UHGV virus genome: UHGV-0024034
Source of the DNA: a virus
Length of the DNA: 30,722 nucleotides
Strand: one strand, 5' to 3'
The translations under genes were made by a program, and so were the position numbers. Shown one piece after another: positions 4,480-10,661 of the stretch. Positions within the stretch are counted from its first letter, which is position 1, and each line of letters opens with the position of its first letter. The notes under the pieces were generated by a model. The model was not told the origin of the DNA, made no database searches, and saw nothing but the letters and a program-made list of their open reading frames with translations.

Positions 4480-6702
4480 TTGGCTGTTCAATTCGCTTAT
4501 CCGTGGAACGTCCCACGGTCGGCAATCTCCAGCCCATACCTTACTTATGAGCAACAGCATCGCCGCGACCGTATGTTCGCGGCTTTGCTGCATGCAAAAA
4601 AGGTGCTTTCTCTCCAGCCCGACTGCGTGCGGTTAGATGTTTATCGCACTGCTGCGGTGCTGGAGCAAAATCAGGGTAGTCAACGAGCCAATGCATTTTT
4701 AATCAGCTTCTGCAAAAAGGCATTGCCGCGTCTTGAACTGGTCGCAAAAAAATACGAATGCGCTGGTATCAACAGCAAGGTATCAACCGCTGTTTTTGGA
4801 AGTCATTTTGATACTCAGCAAATGCAATATCTGTCGTCACGCATGGTTAATATGGTCGCCCAATATAACCGTCTCCCGGACATGTCGCGCGCTGATGTTG
4901 ACCTGTTGGCCGCTGATATTGCTAATTTCATTCGTGGTGAACTTGCCAACATTAATGACCACGGATTCGGCGAGCTTAAAACGCTGTACACCTGGTATAT
5001 TCGTGCTGGCTTTATTTCCCTCCAATTCAACGTTATCCCACCACATTGGGAGCGGGTTGAAAAAAAATATGTCGGTGCGGATGAAATCGCACCGGCTATC
5101 GCCAAAATGTTTAACGATGGGTGGTGGCGCGGTCGTTTGCGCCGTGTTGCAGCTACGTGGCGCGAACACCTGCAAATTGCAGTCGGCAACGTCAGTAAGA
5201 AAAAAAACACTTACGCGAGTAAAAACTGCGTGACTGACTGGCGTGAACAAAAGCGCCGCACTCGTGAATTTCTCAAAGGTCTGGATCTCGAAGACGAAGA
5301 CGGCAACCGTATCAGCCTAATTGAAAAATATGATGGCTCAGTTGCTAACCCTGCGATTCGCCGCTGTGAGCTCATGACCCGCATTCGTGGGTTTGAAAAC
5401 ATCTGTAATGAGCTCGGTTATGTCGGTGAGTTTTACACTCTAACCGCGCCGTCAAAATATCACGCCACGACTAAAGCCGGTTACCGTAACAGCAAATGGA
5501 GCGGTGCCAGCCCGGCTGACACGCAAAACTATCTAACCGGTATCTGGGCGCGTATCCGTGCCAAACTACATCGGGAAGATGTCCGTATTTTCGGTATTCG
5601 TGTCGCCGAGCCCCATCACGACGGCACTCCACACTGGCACATGCTGATGTTCATGCTGCCGGAAGATGTTGAATATGTTCGCTCCATCGTCCGTAAATAC
5701 GCATGGAAAGAAGACCGCCACGAACTGAAAAGCGATAAATCCAAAAAAGCACGTTTCCACGCCGAGTCCATTGACCCGGAGAAAGGCAGCGCAACCGGCT
5801 ATGTTGCTAAATACATTTCAAAAAATATCGACGGTTATGCTCTCGATGGTGAAACCGATGATGAAAGCGGTGAGCTGCTGAAAGAGACAGCCCCCGCCGT
5901 TTCAGCATGGGCTGCGCGCTGGCACATCCGTCAGTTTCAGTTTATTGGTGGTGCGCCGGTGACGGTTTACCGTGAGTTGCGTCGCCTCGCTGATACCGAA
6001 ACCGCGCACGGTCTGAGCGTTGAGTTTGCCGCCGTCCATGATGCCGCCGACGCTGGTGACTGGGCTGGTTATGTTAATGCTCAGGGTGGGCCGTTTGTCC
6101 GTCGCGATGATTTACAGGTGCGCACACTGTATGAACCGCGCACCGAGCTTAATCAGTACGGTGAGGAAACGGTATGTATTAAGGGGGTCTACGATTCCTC
6201 CATAGGTGCAGGAAGCCCGATTTTAACCCGGCTCACTCAGTGGAAGATTGTTCCGAAGCGTGCTGTTGATTTGGCCGTTGACCTTCAGGACGGCAAAGCC
6301 GTCCCTCGGAGTTCTGTCAATAACTGTACGGGAAGCGAAAGCGATCCACCGATACTGGATTTAACAAAACCACTGAGTCGGCGTGAAAGACGAGAATTGA
6401 CCAACCGACTCAGGAAGCAAAAGCCAGCAGCACGGCGAAAATTCATCCACGGAACGGATGAGCAAAACGCAGCTATAGCTAAAACTATCGATGAGATACA
6501 TCTGACAACCGGCATTAATATCAGCCGGGGCGAAGCCCTGCACCTGATGGCCGGTGGTAAAAGTTGTTTTGATGGTAAATGGCTACGCGGAACGGCCAAA
6601 GGAGAAATATTTTCCGCAGCACCATCGCATGAGGCTAAAGCTCGGAAAATCCTTAATCGTGTTGCGGCGATGGCTGAAGCATCAAAACCAATACATGAGT
6701 AA
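4480..6702 (+). CDS. A: Replication initiation endonuclease gpA (rolling-circle initiator)
   Basis: 740 aa; conserved EPHHDGTPHWHMLMF and GYVAKYISKNIDGYALDG motifs; N-terminus aligns with P2 gpA; apparent TTG start with a G-rich RBS. Confidence 0.95.
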   Translation: MAVQFAYPWNVPRSAISSPYLTYEQQHRRDRMFAALLHAKKVLSLQPDCVRLDVYRTAAVLEQNQGSQRANAFLISFCKKALPRLELVAKKYECAGINSKVSTAVFGSHFDTQQMQYLSSRMVNMVAQYNRLPDMSRADVDLLAADIANFIRGELANINDHGFGELKTLYTWYIRAGFISLQFNVIPPHWERVEKKYVGADEIAPAIAKMFNDGWWRGRLRRVAATWREHLQIAVGNVSKKKNTYASKNCVTDWREQKRRTREFLKGLDLEDEDGNRISLIEKYDGSVANPAIRRCELMTRIRGFENICNELGYVGEFYTLTAPSKYHATTKAGYRNSKWSGASPADTQNYLTGIWARIRAKLHREDVRIFGIRVAEPHHDGTPHWHMLMFMLPEDVEYVRSIVRKYAWKEDRHELKSDKSKKARFHAESIDPEKGSATGYVAKYISKNIDGYALDGETDDESGELLKETAPAVSAWAARWHIRQFQFIGGAPVTVYRELRRLADTETAHGLSVEFAAVHDAADAGDWAGYVNAQGGPFVRRDDLQVRTLYEPRTELNQYGEETVCIKGVYDSSIGAGSPILTRLTQWKIVPKRAVDLAVDLQDGKAVPRSSVNNCTGSESDPPILDLTKPLSRRERRELTNRLRKQKPAARRKFIHGTDEQNAAIAKTIDEIHLTTGINISRGEALHLMAGGKSCFDGKWLRGTAKGEIFSAAPSHEAKARKILNRVAAMAEASKPIHE

Positions 6703-6776
6703 TTCATATCCATATCATGCACATACAGCAATCGCTCTATTCGTTTTTTTTCTTCCCATCTTTTGCCAATACGTGC

Positions 6777-6796
6777 TACTGTATAAATATACAGTA
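6777..6796. promoter_or_regulatory. LexA box (SOS operator) TACTGTATAAATATACAGTA
   Basis: Perfect CTGT-N8-ACAG palindrome with an AT-rich core; -35-like TTGCCA at 6763..6768; about 20 bp upstream of the ORF at 6816. Confidence 0.8.
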
Positions 6797-6815
6797 ACCC
6801 TGTGGGAGGGATTTC

Positions 6816-6998
6816 ATGGTTGGCGAACATTTCAGCCGAACGCAGCAAAAGTGGGCTTGTGTGCAATTTATTGCCGAGGTATCTCTGATTGCAAACTGCA
6901 AGCCATCAGACTTAAAGCTCGCGCTCACTCTCATTGCAGACCTAGCAAACAGCGAAAATAACGAAACCGAAGATGATAATTTTTATAAGGCTGATTAG
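6816..6998 (+). CDS. Small protein in LexA-controlled operon; candidate Tum-like antirepressor N-terminal part
   Basis: 60-aa ORF with GGGAGGG RBS directly downstream of the LexA box; function inferred from context only. Confidence 0.45.
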   Translation: MVGEHFSRTQQKWACVQFIAEVSLIANCKPSDLKLALTLIADLANSENNETEDDNFYKAD

Positions 6999-7001
6999 AT
7001 T

Positions 7002-7235
7002 ATGAGAATCAATATCACGTTGGATAAAGAGCAAAAAATTAGTCAGGCAACATTGGATGCACTTGAGGCTGAACTGTACCGCAATCTTCAACCTATTTAC
7101 CCAAAGACTGCTATCCGAATTCGCAAGGGCTCCGCTAATGGCGTTGAACTAAGCGGTTTGAAACTGGACGAAGATAAAAAACGAGTAATGGAAATCATGC
7201 AGCAGGTATGGGAGGACGATAGCTGGCTGCATTAA
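7002..7235 (+). CDS. DinI-family protein
   Basis: 77 aa, MRINITLDK...LDALEAELYRNLQ...EIMQQVWEDDSWLH; same length and pattern as E. coli DinI as I recall it (MRI.V...DAL..EL.R...I.Q..WE..D.W). Confidence 0.75.
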   Translation: MRINITLDKEQKISQATLDALEAELYRNLQPIYPKTAIRIRKGSANGVELSGLKLDEDKKRVMEIMQQVWEDDSWLH

Positions 7236-7237
7236 CA

Positions 7238-7306
7238 AACGCCGCCGGTGCTGAAACTTGCTTTCAGTGCTGGCGGGGTTGAACAACTCGCACCGCGAGG
7301 CGCTAG
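7238..7306 (+). repeat. Hairpin-containing 69-bp repeat, copy 1 (15-bp stem 7242..7256 / 7262..7276)
   Basis: Direct repeat of 7643..7711 with about 9 mismatches; imperfect inverted repeat forms a stem with G-U pairs on the plus-strand RNA only; begins immediately after the stop codon of the DinI-like ORF. Confidence 0.6.
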
Positions 7307-7430
7307 TTCTTCCTCTCAAAGTTTCTCGATGTTTTATTGGTTACACACCAGTGATGAATGGGACGTTACCTTAGCGGGTTTTATAGTGGCGCTGTGGCAG
7401 CGCTAAATAAAATTCATTGAGGGCGATAAT

Positions 7431-7640
7431 ATGCATCGACTACCGGGCGAAATTCCGCAGCACAAAACTAAAAGCATCAAACTGATGGCCATCGTTCATC
7501 GTCTGCAGCAGATAATGGTCAATGAGAATTTGACACCCGCCGAGCTGGTCGGGTGTGCCGAAATAGTCAGGGATAATTACGGCAAGCTGGATAGCATCAG
7601 CAAGCCGACACATTACTCACCGCCACCACGTCGACCATAG
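7431..7640 (+). CDS. Hypothetical protein
   Basis: 69-aa ORF with GAGGG RBS, flanked on both sides by the hairpin repeats. Confidence 0.4.
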   Translation: MHRLPGEIPQHKTKSIKLMAIVHRLQQIMVNENLTPAELVGCAEIVRDNYGKLDSISKPTHYSPPPRRP

Positions 7641-7642
7641 AT

Positions 7643-7711
7643 AACGCCGCCGGAGCTGAAACTCGCTTTCAGGTCTGGCGGGGTTGAACAACGAGCTACG
7701 CGAGGCGTTAG
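7643..7711 (+). repeat. Hairpin-containing 69-bp repeat, copy 2 (stem 7647..7661 / 7667..7681)
   Basis: See copy 1; begins immediately after the stop codon of the ORF at 7431..7640. Confidence 0.6.
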
Positions 7712-7773
7712 CCGGTCATAGCGTCGCAAATACTTCAACCGTCTGCTGGTTAAATAATTCGAGGTTTTTGGAC

Positions 7774-7968
7774 ATGCAAAATCCCCTTTCATCGAAAAAT
7801 GACCCGTTTGCCGATTGGGCAAAGAATCTGACTTTAATGGCTTTAAATAACGACCTGAGCTCTCGCGAGGTGGAAAGCTACACCGCAAAAATGGTCGAGC
7901 AGGCCGGTAAAGATGAGCTATCAGTCGTTATCAAACACCTGTTAAATCACATCAGAATGCGCAAATAA
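7774..7968 (+). CDS. Hypothetical protein
   Basis: 64-aa ORF from an internal Met of the ORF-track entry 7684..7968, whose N-terminal part lies inside repeat copy 2; weak RBS. Confidence 0.35.
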   Translation: MQNPLSSKNDPFADWAKNLTLMALNNDLSSREVESYTAKMVEQAGKDELSVVIKHLLNHIRMRK

Positions 7969-7984
7969 GAGGAACTATATAAAT

Positions 7985-8086
7985 ATGTTATCTCTCGTTT
8001 ATGAAAATCCGTGGACGACGATTTTTCTGATGATTTTTGCCAGCATGTGCCTCAACAGTGTTATTGGCGCATTGCGCGGCCATTAA
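7985..8086 (+). CDS. 33-aa hydrophobic peptide (candidate small membrane protein)
   Basis: MLSLVYENPWTTIFLMIFASMCLNSVIGALRGH; AAGAGG RBS about 11 nt upstream; followed by a strong terminator. Below the 60-aa cut-off of the ORF track. Confidence 0.3.
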   Translation: MLSLVYENPWTTIFLMIFASMCLNSVIGALRGH

Positions 8087-8104
8087 TCGCGACAAAACCA
8101 GACT

Positions 8105-8134
8105 AAAACCGGCACCCTGAATGCCGGTTTTTTT
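8105..8134 (+). terminator. Rho-independent terminator
   Basis: Stem ACCGGCA/TGCCGGT (8108..8114 / 8122..8128), 7-nt loop, then a run of seven T; preceded by an A-run, so possibly bidirectional. Confidence 0.7.
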
Positions 8135-8294
8135 ATGCCATTTTTCCGCGAATTTCCCGTTTTTTAGTCGTGCATGCATTAGGTGCATGGTTTTGCATGC
8201 GTCAGTCTTGCCCGTTCTGTCCGTGCGCCGCCAGAGCTAGCGCGGATCCAGAGTTGTCATGCAACTGCATTAAAACCGCCCCATAAAGCGGGCA

Positions 8295-8313
8295 GGCGTG
8301 GCGGGGAAAGCAT
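8295..8313 (+). other. cos: cos site, 19-nt cohesive-end sequence GGCGTGGCGGGGAAAGCAT
   Basis: Exact match to the 186 cohesive end as I recall it (P2 differs at two positions); lies between the replication side and the packaging genes, as expected in a P2-type prophage. Confidence 0.7.
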
Positions 8314-8532
8314 TGCGCGCCAGCAGTGATGCATAATAATAAAAATTATCCTCTGAGCGCGTCGTGATGGCGCTGTCGTGGTCGCTGCTGGTTCGTTGGT
8401 GGTCGAGTGTGTTCGTGCGCGTGAGACGCATCTGATGCGTGATGGTGGTGTGCATGGAAAAGCCACCAGGAGCAGCGGCTTTACAGGAGTGGCAGGATTC
8501 AAACTGCTAATTATGTTTCTACTATGATTAAA

Positions 8533-9537
8533 CTAATTTACATGTATGTAGAGTTCACCGTCGCCAGACCAATCGGGACACTCTAAAACAAGCCCAAACT
8601 GCTTGAATATTTCATCAATGATTATTGTTATCTCCCGAAAATCACCAAAACCTGTAATGTGCTGGTCATTAAACTTCCCATAAAGATTCTGAAAAGCAAT
8701 GCCTAATTCTGATAATTGATATCTTATCTTTGAGTTGGATAGTGTAAGGGATAGCTTTGGATCGTATTCTTTAATATTGATGTTTAGAGAATGGACATAA
8801 CCCATCGCATAAGCATAAGAGTTGATGATTAGCCTGATACGTTTTTTTACTTCAAGATACATGTCATTCAGAGAAATATTACCGTACTTATAACCCCAGA
8901 TGAGTTTTTCAATCTCGTCAGATACTTCATTTACAACAGTGTCAAGATTCTCTAAAAATAAATCGATAGTTTCTTGAGGGGCAGACCCCGAAGACATGTA
9001 ATTAGCGAGATATTCAGACCATGCACGCGTGGCTGAGATAAGAAGCGCGCTACCATACTCGTTGACTGTAAAGTTTTGGGCTAAGCATGTTAGTAAGTTT
9101 TTTTCATGTACGTGCACTAATTCATGGTGAATGCGATGGATGACTGCGAGGTATCCTTCTTCTTTCAGTTTTAAGAAGCTACCATCATTGAAAAGCTCAA
9201 CAAAAAAATCAATCGATAGCACAAGGGTATATTCTTCACATAGCCCATCATTGCCAATTTTTGTTACTAACTGCCCGACGGCTGCGCCCTGTTTGCTATT
9301 GGTAAATGAACTAGGGGATTTGTGTTGGTAAGAGGATGTTACCTTTTGAAGAGCTTCACTGAAGTTATAGGAAACAATCACGCATTTTAATTTGGAGATA
9401 TCAAGATTGAGATTTTTTGTTAAAGCTCGGATAGCTTCTAGTGTGAAATTACCGATATTATTTGCTTCTTGCTCAGTAGCGAAACCTTCGAGGGTTATTT
9501 TAAAATCAGTTTCCAAAATATTAATCTCCGCGCCCAT
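8533..9537 (-). CDS. AT-rich orphan protein with HExxH motif; candidate anti-phage or abortive-infection effector
   Basis: 334-aa ORF, markedly AT-rich by eye relative to the GC-rich flanks; HELVHVHE at residues 138..145 (nt 9126..9103); no resemblance to P2/186 core proteins that I recognise; lies between cos and portal gene Q. Confidence 0.6.
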   Translation of the reverse strand: MGAEINILETDFKITLEGFATEQEANNIGNFTLEAIRALTKNLNLDISKLKCVIVSYNFSEALQKVTSSYQHKSPSSFTNSKQGAAVGQLVTKIGNDGLCEEYTLVLSIDFFVELFNDGSFLKLKEEGYLAVIHRIHHELVHVHEKNLLTCLAQNFTVNEYGSALLISATRAWSEYLANYMSSGSAPQETIDLFLENLDTVVNEVSDEIEKLIWGYKYGNISLNDMYLEVKKRIRLIINSYAYAMGYVHSLNINIKEYDPKLSLTLSNSKIRYQLSELGIAFQNLYGKFNDQHITGFGDFREITIIIDEIFKQFGLVLECPDWSGDGELYIHVN

Positions 9538-9614: not shown

Positions 9615-10661
9615 TTATTCTGGGTTGTCGAGGGTGTACTCTTTGAATCTGATGACCTCCATGCCGAGCCAGTCATTTACCTCCCTGAACCTGTCCTGTA
9701 GCGGCGACAGCTCGTTGCGCACAAATACCTTTGCCACCTTCTCAACATCACCGAGTGAACCGATATTCTCGGGCTTGCCGCCCATGAGCTGGAACGGTAC
9801 GCGGTGCGCGTCCATCAGATCGGCGGCACTGGCCTTCTTGATGTTGAAAAAGTCATCCTTTGTGGCGACCTCGCTCAGTGGCACGATTTTGATGCCGTCC
9901 GGTTTTCCGCCGGGAGCGTAGAAAAACAGGTTCTTAAAGTTGCCGAGCCCTTTTGAGTTGCGCATCGCCTCGCGCAGCGATTCGACGTCGGTCGCGCTCT
10001 GCGCCGGGTCAGTCACATACATGATGTAGCCTGCGTGCGCGCCGTTCTGATAATACTTGCGGCGGAACAGCGTCGCGGATTCATTCAGCCAAGCGGAATT
10101 AAGCGCGCTGAGATATTCCGGCAGACCGTAAATCTCCTGATTAATGTCGGGCTCCAGCAGGTGAAACACGGTATCAGGCGCGAACTCGTGCGGCTGGGTG
10201 AAGTTTTCCACAAACCAGAAAATCGAATCGTCGACTCCGCGTCGGGTGTATTTGGCTGGCGAGGCCAGCAGTTTGATTAACTGGCCGGTGACGCTGTGGC
10301 GCTGCTCAAGAAAGGCGTTACCGAACACCAGATAATCGAGCGCAAAGCGGCTGAAATCCTGACGGGATAACAACGGGTGCGGAATGTAGGTGCTCGCGAG
10401 CACGTTACGCTTAACATAAATTGGCGAGCTGTGATGCACGGCAGAGCGCAGGCTCTTTGCCAGCCCTGAGAAGCTGACCGGCGGCTCGTACCATTTGCCG
10501 TTACTGATGCACTCGACGTAATCCAGAATGTCGCGCTTATCGAGTACCGGCACCGGCTCGCCGAAGGTGAACGCTGTCGTTTTTGGCGGTGCGCTGGCGG
10601 TCAGTTGTTGTGGTTTGCTGGCCTTTTGTGCGTTGGCTTTACGGGATTTTTGTTTACCCAT
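9615..10661 (-). CDS. Q: Portal protein gpQ
   Basis: 348 aa; long conserved blocks shared with P2 gpQ (FTFGEPVPVLDRRDILDYVEC, LPEYLSALNSAWLNESATLFRRKYY, FFNIKKASAADL). Confidence 0.95.
   Translation of the reverse strand: MGKQKSRKANAQKASKPQQLTASAPPKTTAFTFGEPVPVLDKRDILDYVECISNGKWYEPPVSFSGLAKSLRSAVHHSSPIYVKRNVLASTYIPHPLLSRQDFSRFALDYLVFGNAFLEQRHSVTGQLIKLLASPAKYTRRGVDDSIFWFVENFTQPHEFAPDTVFHLLEPDINQEIYGLPEYLSALNSAWLNESATLFRRKYYQNGAHAGYIMYVTDPAQSATDVESLREAMRNSKGLGNFKNLFFYAPGGKPDGIKIVPLSEVATKDDFFNIKKASAADLMDAHRVPFQLMGGKPENIGSLGDVEKVAKVFVRNELSPLQDRFREVNDWLGMEVIRFKEYTLDNPE

Follow-up and report, generated by a model that had tools for sequence, protein, structure and literature searches.

Coliphage 186 has an SOS operon (Brumby et al. 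1996, cited in PMC5322425; GenBank U32222) with the promoter p95, the genes tum and orf97, and the terminators t95a and t95b. Among the products of the host's own SOS regulon, that of Escherichia coli, are two membrane toxins, TisB and DinQ; type I toxins are frequent in prophages, and their mRNAs need processing prior to translation (PMC12648545). In the present study, we examined a short open reading frame (ORF) on the + strand of the virus genome UHGV-0024034, a stretch of 30,722 nucleotides (nt) that is called the window hereafter. The ORF, at 7985..8086 with the termination codon included, runs from an ATG (7985-7987) to a TAA (8084-8086) and has 33 codons encoding MLSLVYENPWTTIFLMIFASMCLNSVIGALRGH, exactly the translation given in a preliminary description of the same DNA. 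We found that its reading frame is conserved in related prophages and carries a signal of selection, and we consider it very probable, on the grounds of conservation and selection, that the ORF is a real, translated gene for a small membrane protein.

Conservation of the reading frame was studied in two sets of loci. The first set, 46 loci from IMG/VR, was gathered with a pattern back-translated from YENPWTT.F, and is biased in that the pattern derives from the peptide. An ATG followed by exactly 33 codons was found in 44 of these 46 loci, and a 1-nt deletion in the other 2. The second, unbiased set consists of 35 loci that were gathered through the 64-amino-acid protein encoded just upstream, with no reference to the peptide. 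The 33-codon frame is intact in 29 of them; 2 are frameshifted, and the remaining 4 lack the start codon and show further decay. Four extra loci from more distant hosts were examined separately, and the ORF is intact in two of these, from Edwardsiella and Lelliottia. Conservation in related prophages, which had been proposed as a check on the reading frame, is thus what both sets show.

The intact copies vary in the manner of a coding sequence. Among 35 distinct intact nucleotide sequences, no insertion or deletion falls within the ORF. Column identity is 0.88 in the ORF, 0.62 in the 18-nt spacer between the stop codon and the terminator that follows, where insertions and deletions do occur, and 0.89 in the terminator itself. 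The numbers of variable sites at codon positions 1, 2, and 3 are 14, 10, and 26, respectively (11, 8, and 18 in the unbiased set). The ratio of nonsynonymous to synonymous polymorphism (pN/pS) is 0.32 in the frame of the ORF, lower than in any of the five alternative frames (0.52-3.8), and none of 500 column shuffles gave a value as low. For the unbiased set, pN/pS is 0.36, and 1.2% of the shuffles were as low (p about 0.012). The neighbouring 64-amino-acid gene has a pN/pS of 0.15-0.34. Amino acid changes in the predicted helix of the peptide are conservative (I/V/L/M/F, A/T/S, and M/C).

The ORF is also kept in different surroundings. Phages of the SEN1 type have a clean deletion equivalent to window positions 7721-7965, which removes the 64-amino-acid gene and leaves the Shine-Dalgarno (SD) sequence and the ORF. 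At locus L042, AAGAGGA lies 5 nt from the ATG, an optimal spacing, and the DNA upstream is unrelated. In Edwardsiella anguillarum (CP094321; L096 1-1984), the 64-amino-acid gene and the intact peptide ORF, both nearly identical to the E. coli versions, directly follow gene A. As this pair lacks the LexA/tum/DinI operon, it must be expressed with the early or replication genes or from its own promoter. The SD sequence, the ORF, and the terminator are therefore a unit that has survived in independent upstream contexts (SEN1-type phages, L042, and Edwardsiella).

The deduced peptide has a hydrophobic segment at residues 12-30, with a Kyte-Doolittle mean over 19 residues of 2.02. This mean lies between 2.0 and 2.4 in all variants, and a value of 2.02 is reached by about 1% of the 91 ATG-initiated ORFs of 25-45 amino acids in the window. 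In the AlphaFold2 prediction, the chain makes a short turn at the N-terminus, kinks at Asn-Pro, and continues as a single long helix (residues 9-32), with a mean predicted local distance difference test (pLDDT) score of 88. The N-terminal motif MLSL(V/I)YENPW is near-invariant. Within the helix (about residues 11-30), C22-L-N-S25 and G28 are conserved, and the peptide ends in a basic sequence, R31-G-Q/H/K, of which R31 is near-invariant. In membrane proteins, positively charged residues follow the well-established positive-inside rule, which predicts an N-out/C-in topology for this peptide. The fixed extramembrane motif and the polar Asn-Ser face look like those of small membrane proteins that bind a partner (PMC12648545); by the same analogy, the peptide appears less like amphipathic, charge-zippered pore formers. 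From the conservation of the frame, the codon periodicity, the pN/pS, and the hydrophobicity, the ORF is likely a gene for a small membrane peptide with a single helix.

The signals for translation and for the end of transcription are of ordinary strength and good quality, respectively. An SD-like AAGAGGA (7967..7973, + strand) stands 10-12 nt upstream of the ATG. Its pairing with the anti-SD sequence (-6.0 kcal/mol) is like that of the neighbouring genes (-5.9 to -6.6) and the spacer is long; hence we regard the ribosome-binding site as moderate. Moderate pairing at a workable distance is what a genuine small ORF would have. Either AAGGA or GAGGA is kept at this position in most homologues, and a conserved hairpin that sequesters the SD sequence was not found. 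The ORF starts 17 nt past the stop codon of the 64-amino-acid cistron, which the SD sequence overlaps, and translational coupling to that cistron is possible.

Downstream, an intrinsic terminator, AAAACCGGCA-CCCTGAA-TGCCGGTTTT with a T tail, lies at 8105..8134 on the + strand, about 160 nt before cos. It has a 10-bp stem, a 7-nt loop, and a U7 tail, with a folding energy of -14.2 kcal/mol (z = -3.9 versus shuffles). The part of phage 186 annotated as t95b, 'p95 transcript terminator', can be aligned with it base for base, and the two elements are homologous. Across 45 sequences the stem is invariant and the loop is variable. A simple scan listed this terminator on the minus strand only, because A-T pairs had consumed the T tail; with its A-tract and T-tract flanks, it is potentially bidirectional.

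Two candidate elements near the start codon were tried and rejected. An internal hairpin at 7995-8018, suggested by a terminator scan, is broken on both arms by Klebsiella-type substitutions (G-to-A changes in L006) with no compensation. A sequence resembling the consensus for integration host factor, TATCAATATGTTA, spans the start codon in Midge-type relatives; it is not a conserved site, because the window, SW9-type phages, and L042 do not have it.

The window represents an E. coli prophage of the 186/P2-like (Peduoviridae) type. Over the stretch 7960-8140 it shows 100% identity to a prophage carried by E. coli strain MB06232, and this stretch was seen in 35 of the 5426 complete genomes of E. 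coli; among phage records, Salmonella phages SI22/SW9 and Escherichia phage Midge come nearest, with about 92% identity. Gene A, which encodes the replication endonuclease, has its end at 6702, whereas the genes for portal and terminase start at 10661 and are read leftward. We placed the cohesive end site, cos, at 8295-8313, because the records of PSP3, EtG, and 186 begin there with an annotated cos. At the head of the operon, in a p95-type SOS promoter, is the LexA box CTGTATAAATATACAG (6779..6794, + strand). It is the sole zero-mismatch CTGT-N8-ACAG in the window, its position is equivalent to that of the annotated p95/LexA site in phage 186, and an identical box precedes the operon of L042.

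Five frames follow the LexA box on the + strand: a 60-amino-acid ORF (6816-6998; phrog_1993), a 77-amino-acid DinI-family protein (Tum/DinI-like; 7002-7235; Pfam E = 7e-24), a 69-amino-acid ORF (7431-7640; phrog_11386), the 64-amino-acid ORF (7774..7968; phrog_2454, E = 4.6e-40, annotated in PHROG as unknown function), and the 33-codon ORF as the fifth and last. The DinI-family protein is 47% identical to residues 71-145, the C-terminal half, of 186 Tum (E = 5e-28). From the LexA box (6794) to the ORF (7985), a simple scan of the + strand showed nothing that resembles a terminator. Downstream of the ORF, the + strand has no gene before cos, and beyond it is the antisense of convergent genes. 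As judged by homology and anatomy, the 33-codon ORF is the last cistron of this LexA-box tum/DinI operon adjoining cos.

The 64-amino-acid ORF is the usual partner of the 33-codon ORF, and its TAA (7966-7968) overlaps the SD sequence of the peptide. Its protein has 54 homologues across Enterobacterales, every one named hypothetical, and is predicted to be a three-helix bundle (pLDDT 71), with no informative PDB fold or sequence match and no recognisable family.

The preliminary description agrees in part with these results. It had proposed a small membrane peptide with one transmembrane helix, which is supported by the frame conservation, the codon periodicity, the pN/pS, the hydropathy peak, and the single predicted helix. 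The intrinsic terminator that it placed after the ORF is a good hairpin (z = -3.9) and a t95b homologue, and the position at the end of an SOS-inducible operon next to cos is borne out by the LexA box, the homology to Tum, the terminator, and cos. The AAGAGG that it saw upstream of the ATG is present at 7967-7972; calling this a strong ribosome-binding site overstated a moderate SD sequence with neighbour-like pairing and a long spacer of 10-12 nt.

Several features of the operon stretch deserve a separate record. The function of Tum appears to be split here between the 60-amino-acid ORF and the 77-amino-acid DinI-family protein that follows it; the former has no similarity to 186 Tum, and its SEN1 annotation is 'UV induction of bacteriophage'. 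A 26-nt similarity to the LexA-box region at 7961-7986 was considered as a second LexA box and rejected, as the right half-site is missing (GTTA versus ACAG). A 69-nt direct repeat, 87% identical (7238-7306 and 7643-7711), flanks the 69-amino-acid ORF, which resembles a cassette that entered at a junction motif found repeatedly, GCTGAAACTCGCTTTCAG...GGGGTTGAACAAC; this motif also occurs after orf97 in phage 186 and after the DinI gene in L042. Phages Midge and FSL SP-004, a Klebsiella phage, and Cronobacter and Lelliottia prophages have a 143-amino-acid gene on the minus strand, the start of which overlaps the start of the 64-amino-acid gene by 2 nt (L002 1128-1559, L006 2360-2791). At its place the window has only a 91-amino-acid minus-strand ORF (7613-7888), which is probably a remnant of that gene, the rest having been replaced by the 69-amino-acid cassette. 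In Klebsiella phage ST147-VIM1phi7.1 (L006 985-2221), genes for an XRE-family regulator and an RNA-directed DNA polymerase are located between a DinI remnant and the module of the 143-, 64-, and 33-amino-acid genes. They may be retron-like defence cargo, and their presence shows that the operon stretch is a hotspot for cargo. Between cos and the portal gene, a 334-amino-acid ORF (8533-9537, minus strand) has a GC content of 35-40% versus about 55% in the phage core. It matches phrog_11743 (annotated in PHROG as unknown function) and has no match in Pfam, NCBIfam, or PADLOC; it has the look of a moron gained by horizontal transfer, placed in a cos-portal cargo slot, a position at which E. coli S3 has other genes.

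From these data we propose the following course of events. The transcript of the tum/DinI (p95-type) operon would end at the t95b-homologous terminator just before cos, and the 33-codon ORF would be translated by coupling to, or re-initiation after, the 64-amino-acid ORF. The peptide would be made upon LexA cleavage, at prophage induction; in relatives that have the 64-amino-acid/peptide pair right after gene A, it would be made with the early lytic genes, and not in the quiet lysogen. Its helix would insert in the inner membrane with the N-terminus out and the C-terminus in. By analogy with MgrB, AcrZ, and MgtS, whose mode of action it may share, the peptide could use its YENPW motif and the helix's polar Asn-Ser face to bind a specific partner protein in the membrane. 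Its likeliest job would be an accessory one at induction, for example, blocking the entry of sibling-phage DNA or adjusting a function of the host membrane.

If the ORF is translated, the analogy makes a partner-binding modulator somewhat the better guess over a pore former. Superinfection exclusion in particular, as the preliminary description had suggested, is doubtful as the specific role. Position is the only pointer to it: at the equivalent place of its operon, phage 186 encodes the membrane-type protein Orf97, which is annotated as blocking 186 infection when expressed. The peptide matches no exclusion or defence family in PADLOC, Pfam, or annotated PHROG. Weighing the gene-level claim against the proposed mechanism, we hold the explanation as a whole with slightly better than even confidence.

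A number of observations weigh against the ORF being a functional gene of this kind. About 17% of the copies in the unbiased set are inactivated: the start codon is lost in L064, L072, L087, and L088, and L056 and L065 are frameshifted. Two of the four copies from distant hosts are broken, by a nonsense codon in Cronobacter (L097) and by loss of the start codon in a Kluyvera-like metagenome (L095), and L021 and L028 lack the stop codon. The SD spacing of 10-12 nt exceeds the optimum, and the SD sequence is weak in some relatives (TATGGA, -3.1 kcal/mol). A pN/pS of 0.32-0.43 means moderate constraint, and part of the sample was ascertained with the peptide-derived pattern. Wobble-position heterozygosity in the 35 distinct sequences is 0.06 in codons 2-10 versus 0.22 in codons 11-33 (p = 0.009), which implies a nucleotide-level constraint on 7985-8014 (codons 1-10) on top of coding; candidates for this stretch are a region of translation initiation, an RNA seed, and a site that a protein binds. 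Finally, the partner binding and the biological role are argued by analogy. Because about 17% of the copies are pseudogenes, the gene is dispensable for the phage. We regard it as an ordinary accessory gene for a small membrane protein of a known general kind, belonging to a narrowly distributed family.

Among the alternatives, the one that keeps the peptide and changes its action is an SOS-induced toxin. The peptide would then form pores or depolarise the membrane like TisB or DinQ: it would oligomerise, dissipate the proton-motive force, and slow metabolism, with or without an RNA antitoxin. A hydrophobic peptide with one predicted helix and fewer than 60 amino acids has the size of a type I toxin, it is encoded in a LexA-box operon, and the presence of TisB and DinQ in the host SOS regulon and of type I toxins in many prophages (PMC12648545) speaks in the same direction; the conserved polar Asn-Ser could line an oligomer interface. 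However, with its start 17 nt past the previous stop codon, the ORF does not form a unit of its own behind a long structured leader; as a probably coupled last cistron with an accessible SD sequence, it differs from the independent, processed leader mRNAs of type I toxins. Searches of Pfam, NCBIfam, and PADLOC and with phmmer showed no sequence membership in the toxin families Hok/Gef, Ldr, TisB, Ibs, ShoB, DinQ, or Zor. The helix is neither amphipathic nor charge-zippered, unlike TisB, and the near-invariant extramembrane YENPW suggests specific recognition over generic pore formation.

The search for an antisense RNA gave a similar, weaker result. No promoter-like site was seen on either strand of 6600-8700 with a scan that is insensitive and misses even the presumed p95-type promoter. 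A relaxed scan, which likewise misses that promoter, gave one weak minus-strand site (8001 to 7974, 8/12 matches), which reads away from the ORF. No minus-strand site that reads into the ORF was seen in these low-sensitivity scans, which is weak evidence, and the terminator hairpin would block antisense transcripts from the right. That the gene often decays to a pseudogene with no cognate antitoxin being lost would fit a toxin but says little in either direction. Lacking a separate transcription unit with a leader, a match to a toxin family, and, as far as the insensitive scans reach, an antisense promoter, the ORF does not support the type I toxin-like role put forward in the preliminary description, and we consider a toxin unlikely.

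A second alternative abandons translation. The ORF would be an untranslated, nucleotide-level element, either the 3' end of the operon mRNA in the role of a terminator-proximal (possibly Hfq-binding) small RNA or a DNA site associated with the region near cos, and its open frame would be fortuitous. Codons 2-10, near-invariant even at the wobble position, would fit such an element, as would the terminator with its U7 tail, a feature typical of Hfq-dependent small RNAs. Besides, the DNA from the terminator to cos is conserved well beyond the distribution of the ORF, the roughly 17% of copies with a broken frame have similar DNA, and RefSeq/PGAP does not call the ORF. Against these points stand the third-position periodicity and the lowest pN/pS exactly in the frame of the ORF. 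The start, the stop, and the length of 33 codons are kept, with insertions and deletions just outside and none inside, and the copies without a start codon (L087, L088, L064, L072, and L095) have gathered many further changes, as expected once a coding constraint is lost. At the level of RNA, no Rfam family reaches its threshold over the locus (sub-threshold matches to the Thr and Phe leaders and C0465 only), and the sole internal hairpin, at 7995-8018, shows no compensatory changes. At the level of DNA, phages 186 and PSP3 and Yersinia phages share the terminator-to-cos DNA but not the ORF block; since they keep that DNA without it, the block is not part of cos. An untranslated element is accordingly quite unlikely.

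A third possibility combines the two, as a dual-function locus with an SOS-induced membrane effector that needs no RNA antitoxin and a terminator-proximal regulatory RNA. The peptide might depolarise the host or shut the inner-membrane route of DNA entry at induction, and the RNA, derived from the tum operon's 3' end, might use the wobble-invariant first 30 nt and the U7 terminator. Taken jointly, the two parts make a very unlikely explanation.

The last alternative, a leader-peptide attenuator in which translation of the short ORF controls read-through of 8105-8134 beyond cos, was rejected as hardly credible: a short ORF does stand directly before a terminator, and weak Rfam matches cover 8014-8136 (Thr_leader, 23 bits, E = 0.2; Phe_leader, 20.8 bits, E = 2.1), but these scores are less than half of the 55-bit gathering threshold, the ORF contains no stretch of consecutive regulatory codons, its stop codon is 19 nt before the stem and beyond the reach of a terminating ribosome, no alternative hairpin is conserved, the + strand downstream (cos, then the antisense of convergent genes) offers nothing to regulate, and the same terminator in 186 is a plain operon end.

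Returning to the gene for a small membrane protein, we looked for its family in public collections. At least 91 distinct sequences in three 90% clusters are named 'uncharacterised' or 'hypothetical protein', and some of them have been seen on 1000 or more contigs. The ORF had been described as unannotated. This holds for RefSeq/PGAP, which skips it in the 100% identical prophage of MB06232; it does not hold for GenBank and UniProt, which list a 33-amino-acid hypothetical protein, for example, QBQ71544.1 in Klebsiella phage ST147-VIM1phi7.1. A scan of species-representative genomes gave two true matches (Citrobacter and Escherichia sp.) and three others that were discarded as chance, and look-ups of phages, plasmids, and protein clusters added Salmonella, Klebsiella, Edwardsiella, and Lelliottia. 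When 1.84 billion representatives were searched exhaustively with phmmer, no relatives appeared beyond the family itself; a 1706-amino-acid match was rejected as a repetitive hydrophobic artefact, and a tandem-duplicated peptide query returned frameshift or read-through variants only. The peptide matches no family in Pfam, NCBIfam, or PADLOC at E <= 0.1, its only match in PHROGs is marginal (phrog_26968, E = 0.033), and its string was not found in a text search of a literature collection. As far as these sequence searches tell, the family is narrow and confined to enterobacterial P2/186-like prophages.

On the opposite strand, an ORF at 7988-8188 was considered as a gene and rejected: its most variable sites would be at its own codon position 1, and it differs in length from phage to phage. 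We take it to be a shadow ORF that mirrors the hydrophobic + frame. The shadow ORF is annotated in SW9 as 'aI protein' and in Midge and RefSeq E. coli S3 as a hypothetical protein, is found in relatives (L001 1939-2109, L002 1769-2041, and L007 2538-2807), and has seeded the PHROG families 17882 and 6595.

If translated, the ORF would be a further example of the very small membrane proteins of phages, which standard annotation handles inconsistently: PGAP skips it, and several phage records carry the spurious antisense ORF instead. Its position as the last gene of a tum/DinI SOS operon would give a handle on the effect of a 186-type prophage on the host membrane at induction, with exclusion of sibling phages and membrane energetics as candidate roles. 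The practical value lies mostly in better annotation of Peduoviridae genomes, and current understanding is not challenged.

The closest described system is the p95 operon of phage 186. Both operons have a LexA box at the start, a Tum/DinI-like gene, and a position between gene A and cos; they are homologous in the terminator and in the DNA from there to cos; and the last cistron of each encodes an accessory protein of membrane type, 186 Orf97 beginning with hydrophobic segments. They differ in that 186 has no copy of the 33-codon or the 64-amino-acid ORF, orf97 running directly into the junction motif and t95b, and in that Orf97 (243 amino acids) has no sequence relation to the peptide. Moreover, Tum is split or shortened in the window into the 60-amino-acid ORF and the 77-amino-acid DinI-like protein.

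TisB/IstR-1 and DinQ/AgrB resemble the locus in that TisB and DinQ are small LexA-controlled inner-membrane peptides of 27-29 amino acids (PMC12648545), the peptide here having 33 amino acids, one predicted helix, and a LexA-box operon. In contrast to the last cistron of a polycistronic operon, tisB and dinQ are stand-alone genes with long processed leaders and dedicated antisense small RNAs; they have no sequence similarity to the peptide, and no antisense promoter was seen here in the low-sensitivity scans. Small regulatory membrane proteins of enterobacteria such as MgrB, AcrZ, MgtS, PmrR, and CydX (PMC12648545) have 30-50 amino acids and one transmembrane helix, as the peptide is predicted to have. 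Although the peptide has no sequence relation to these proteins, is phage-encoded, and is restricted to P2/186-like prophages, it shares with the MgrB type a short conserved extramembrane motif and polar helix residues, which in those proteins mediate binding to a larger partner. In phage T4, the membrane proteins Imm and Sp are superinfection-exclusion proteins made early in lytic growth. The peptide is much smaller than Imm, Sp, or 186 Orf97 and not homologous to them, but like them it would be a dispensable, phage-encoded membrane protein expressed at induction or early in lytic growth and not from a lysogenic promoter, as the context of its operon suggests.

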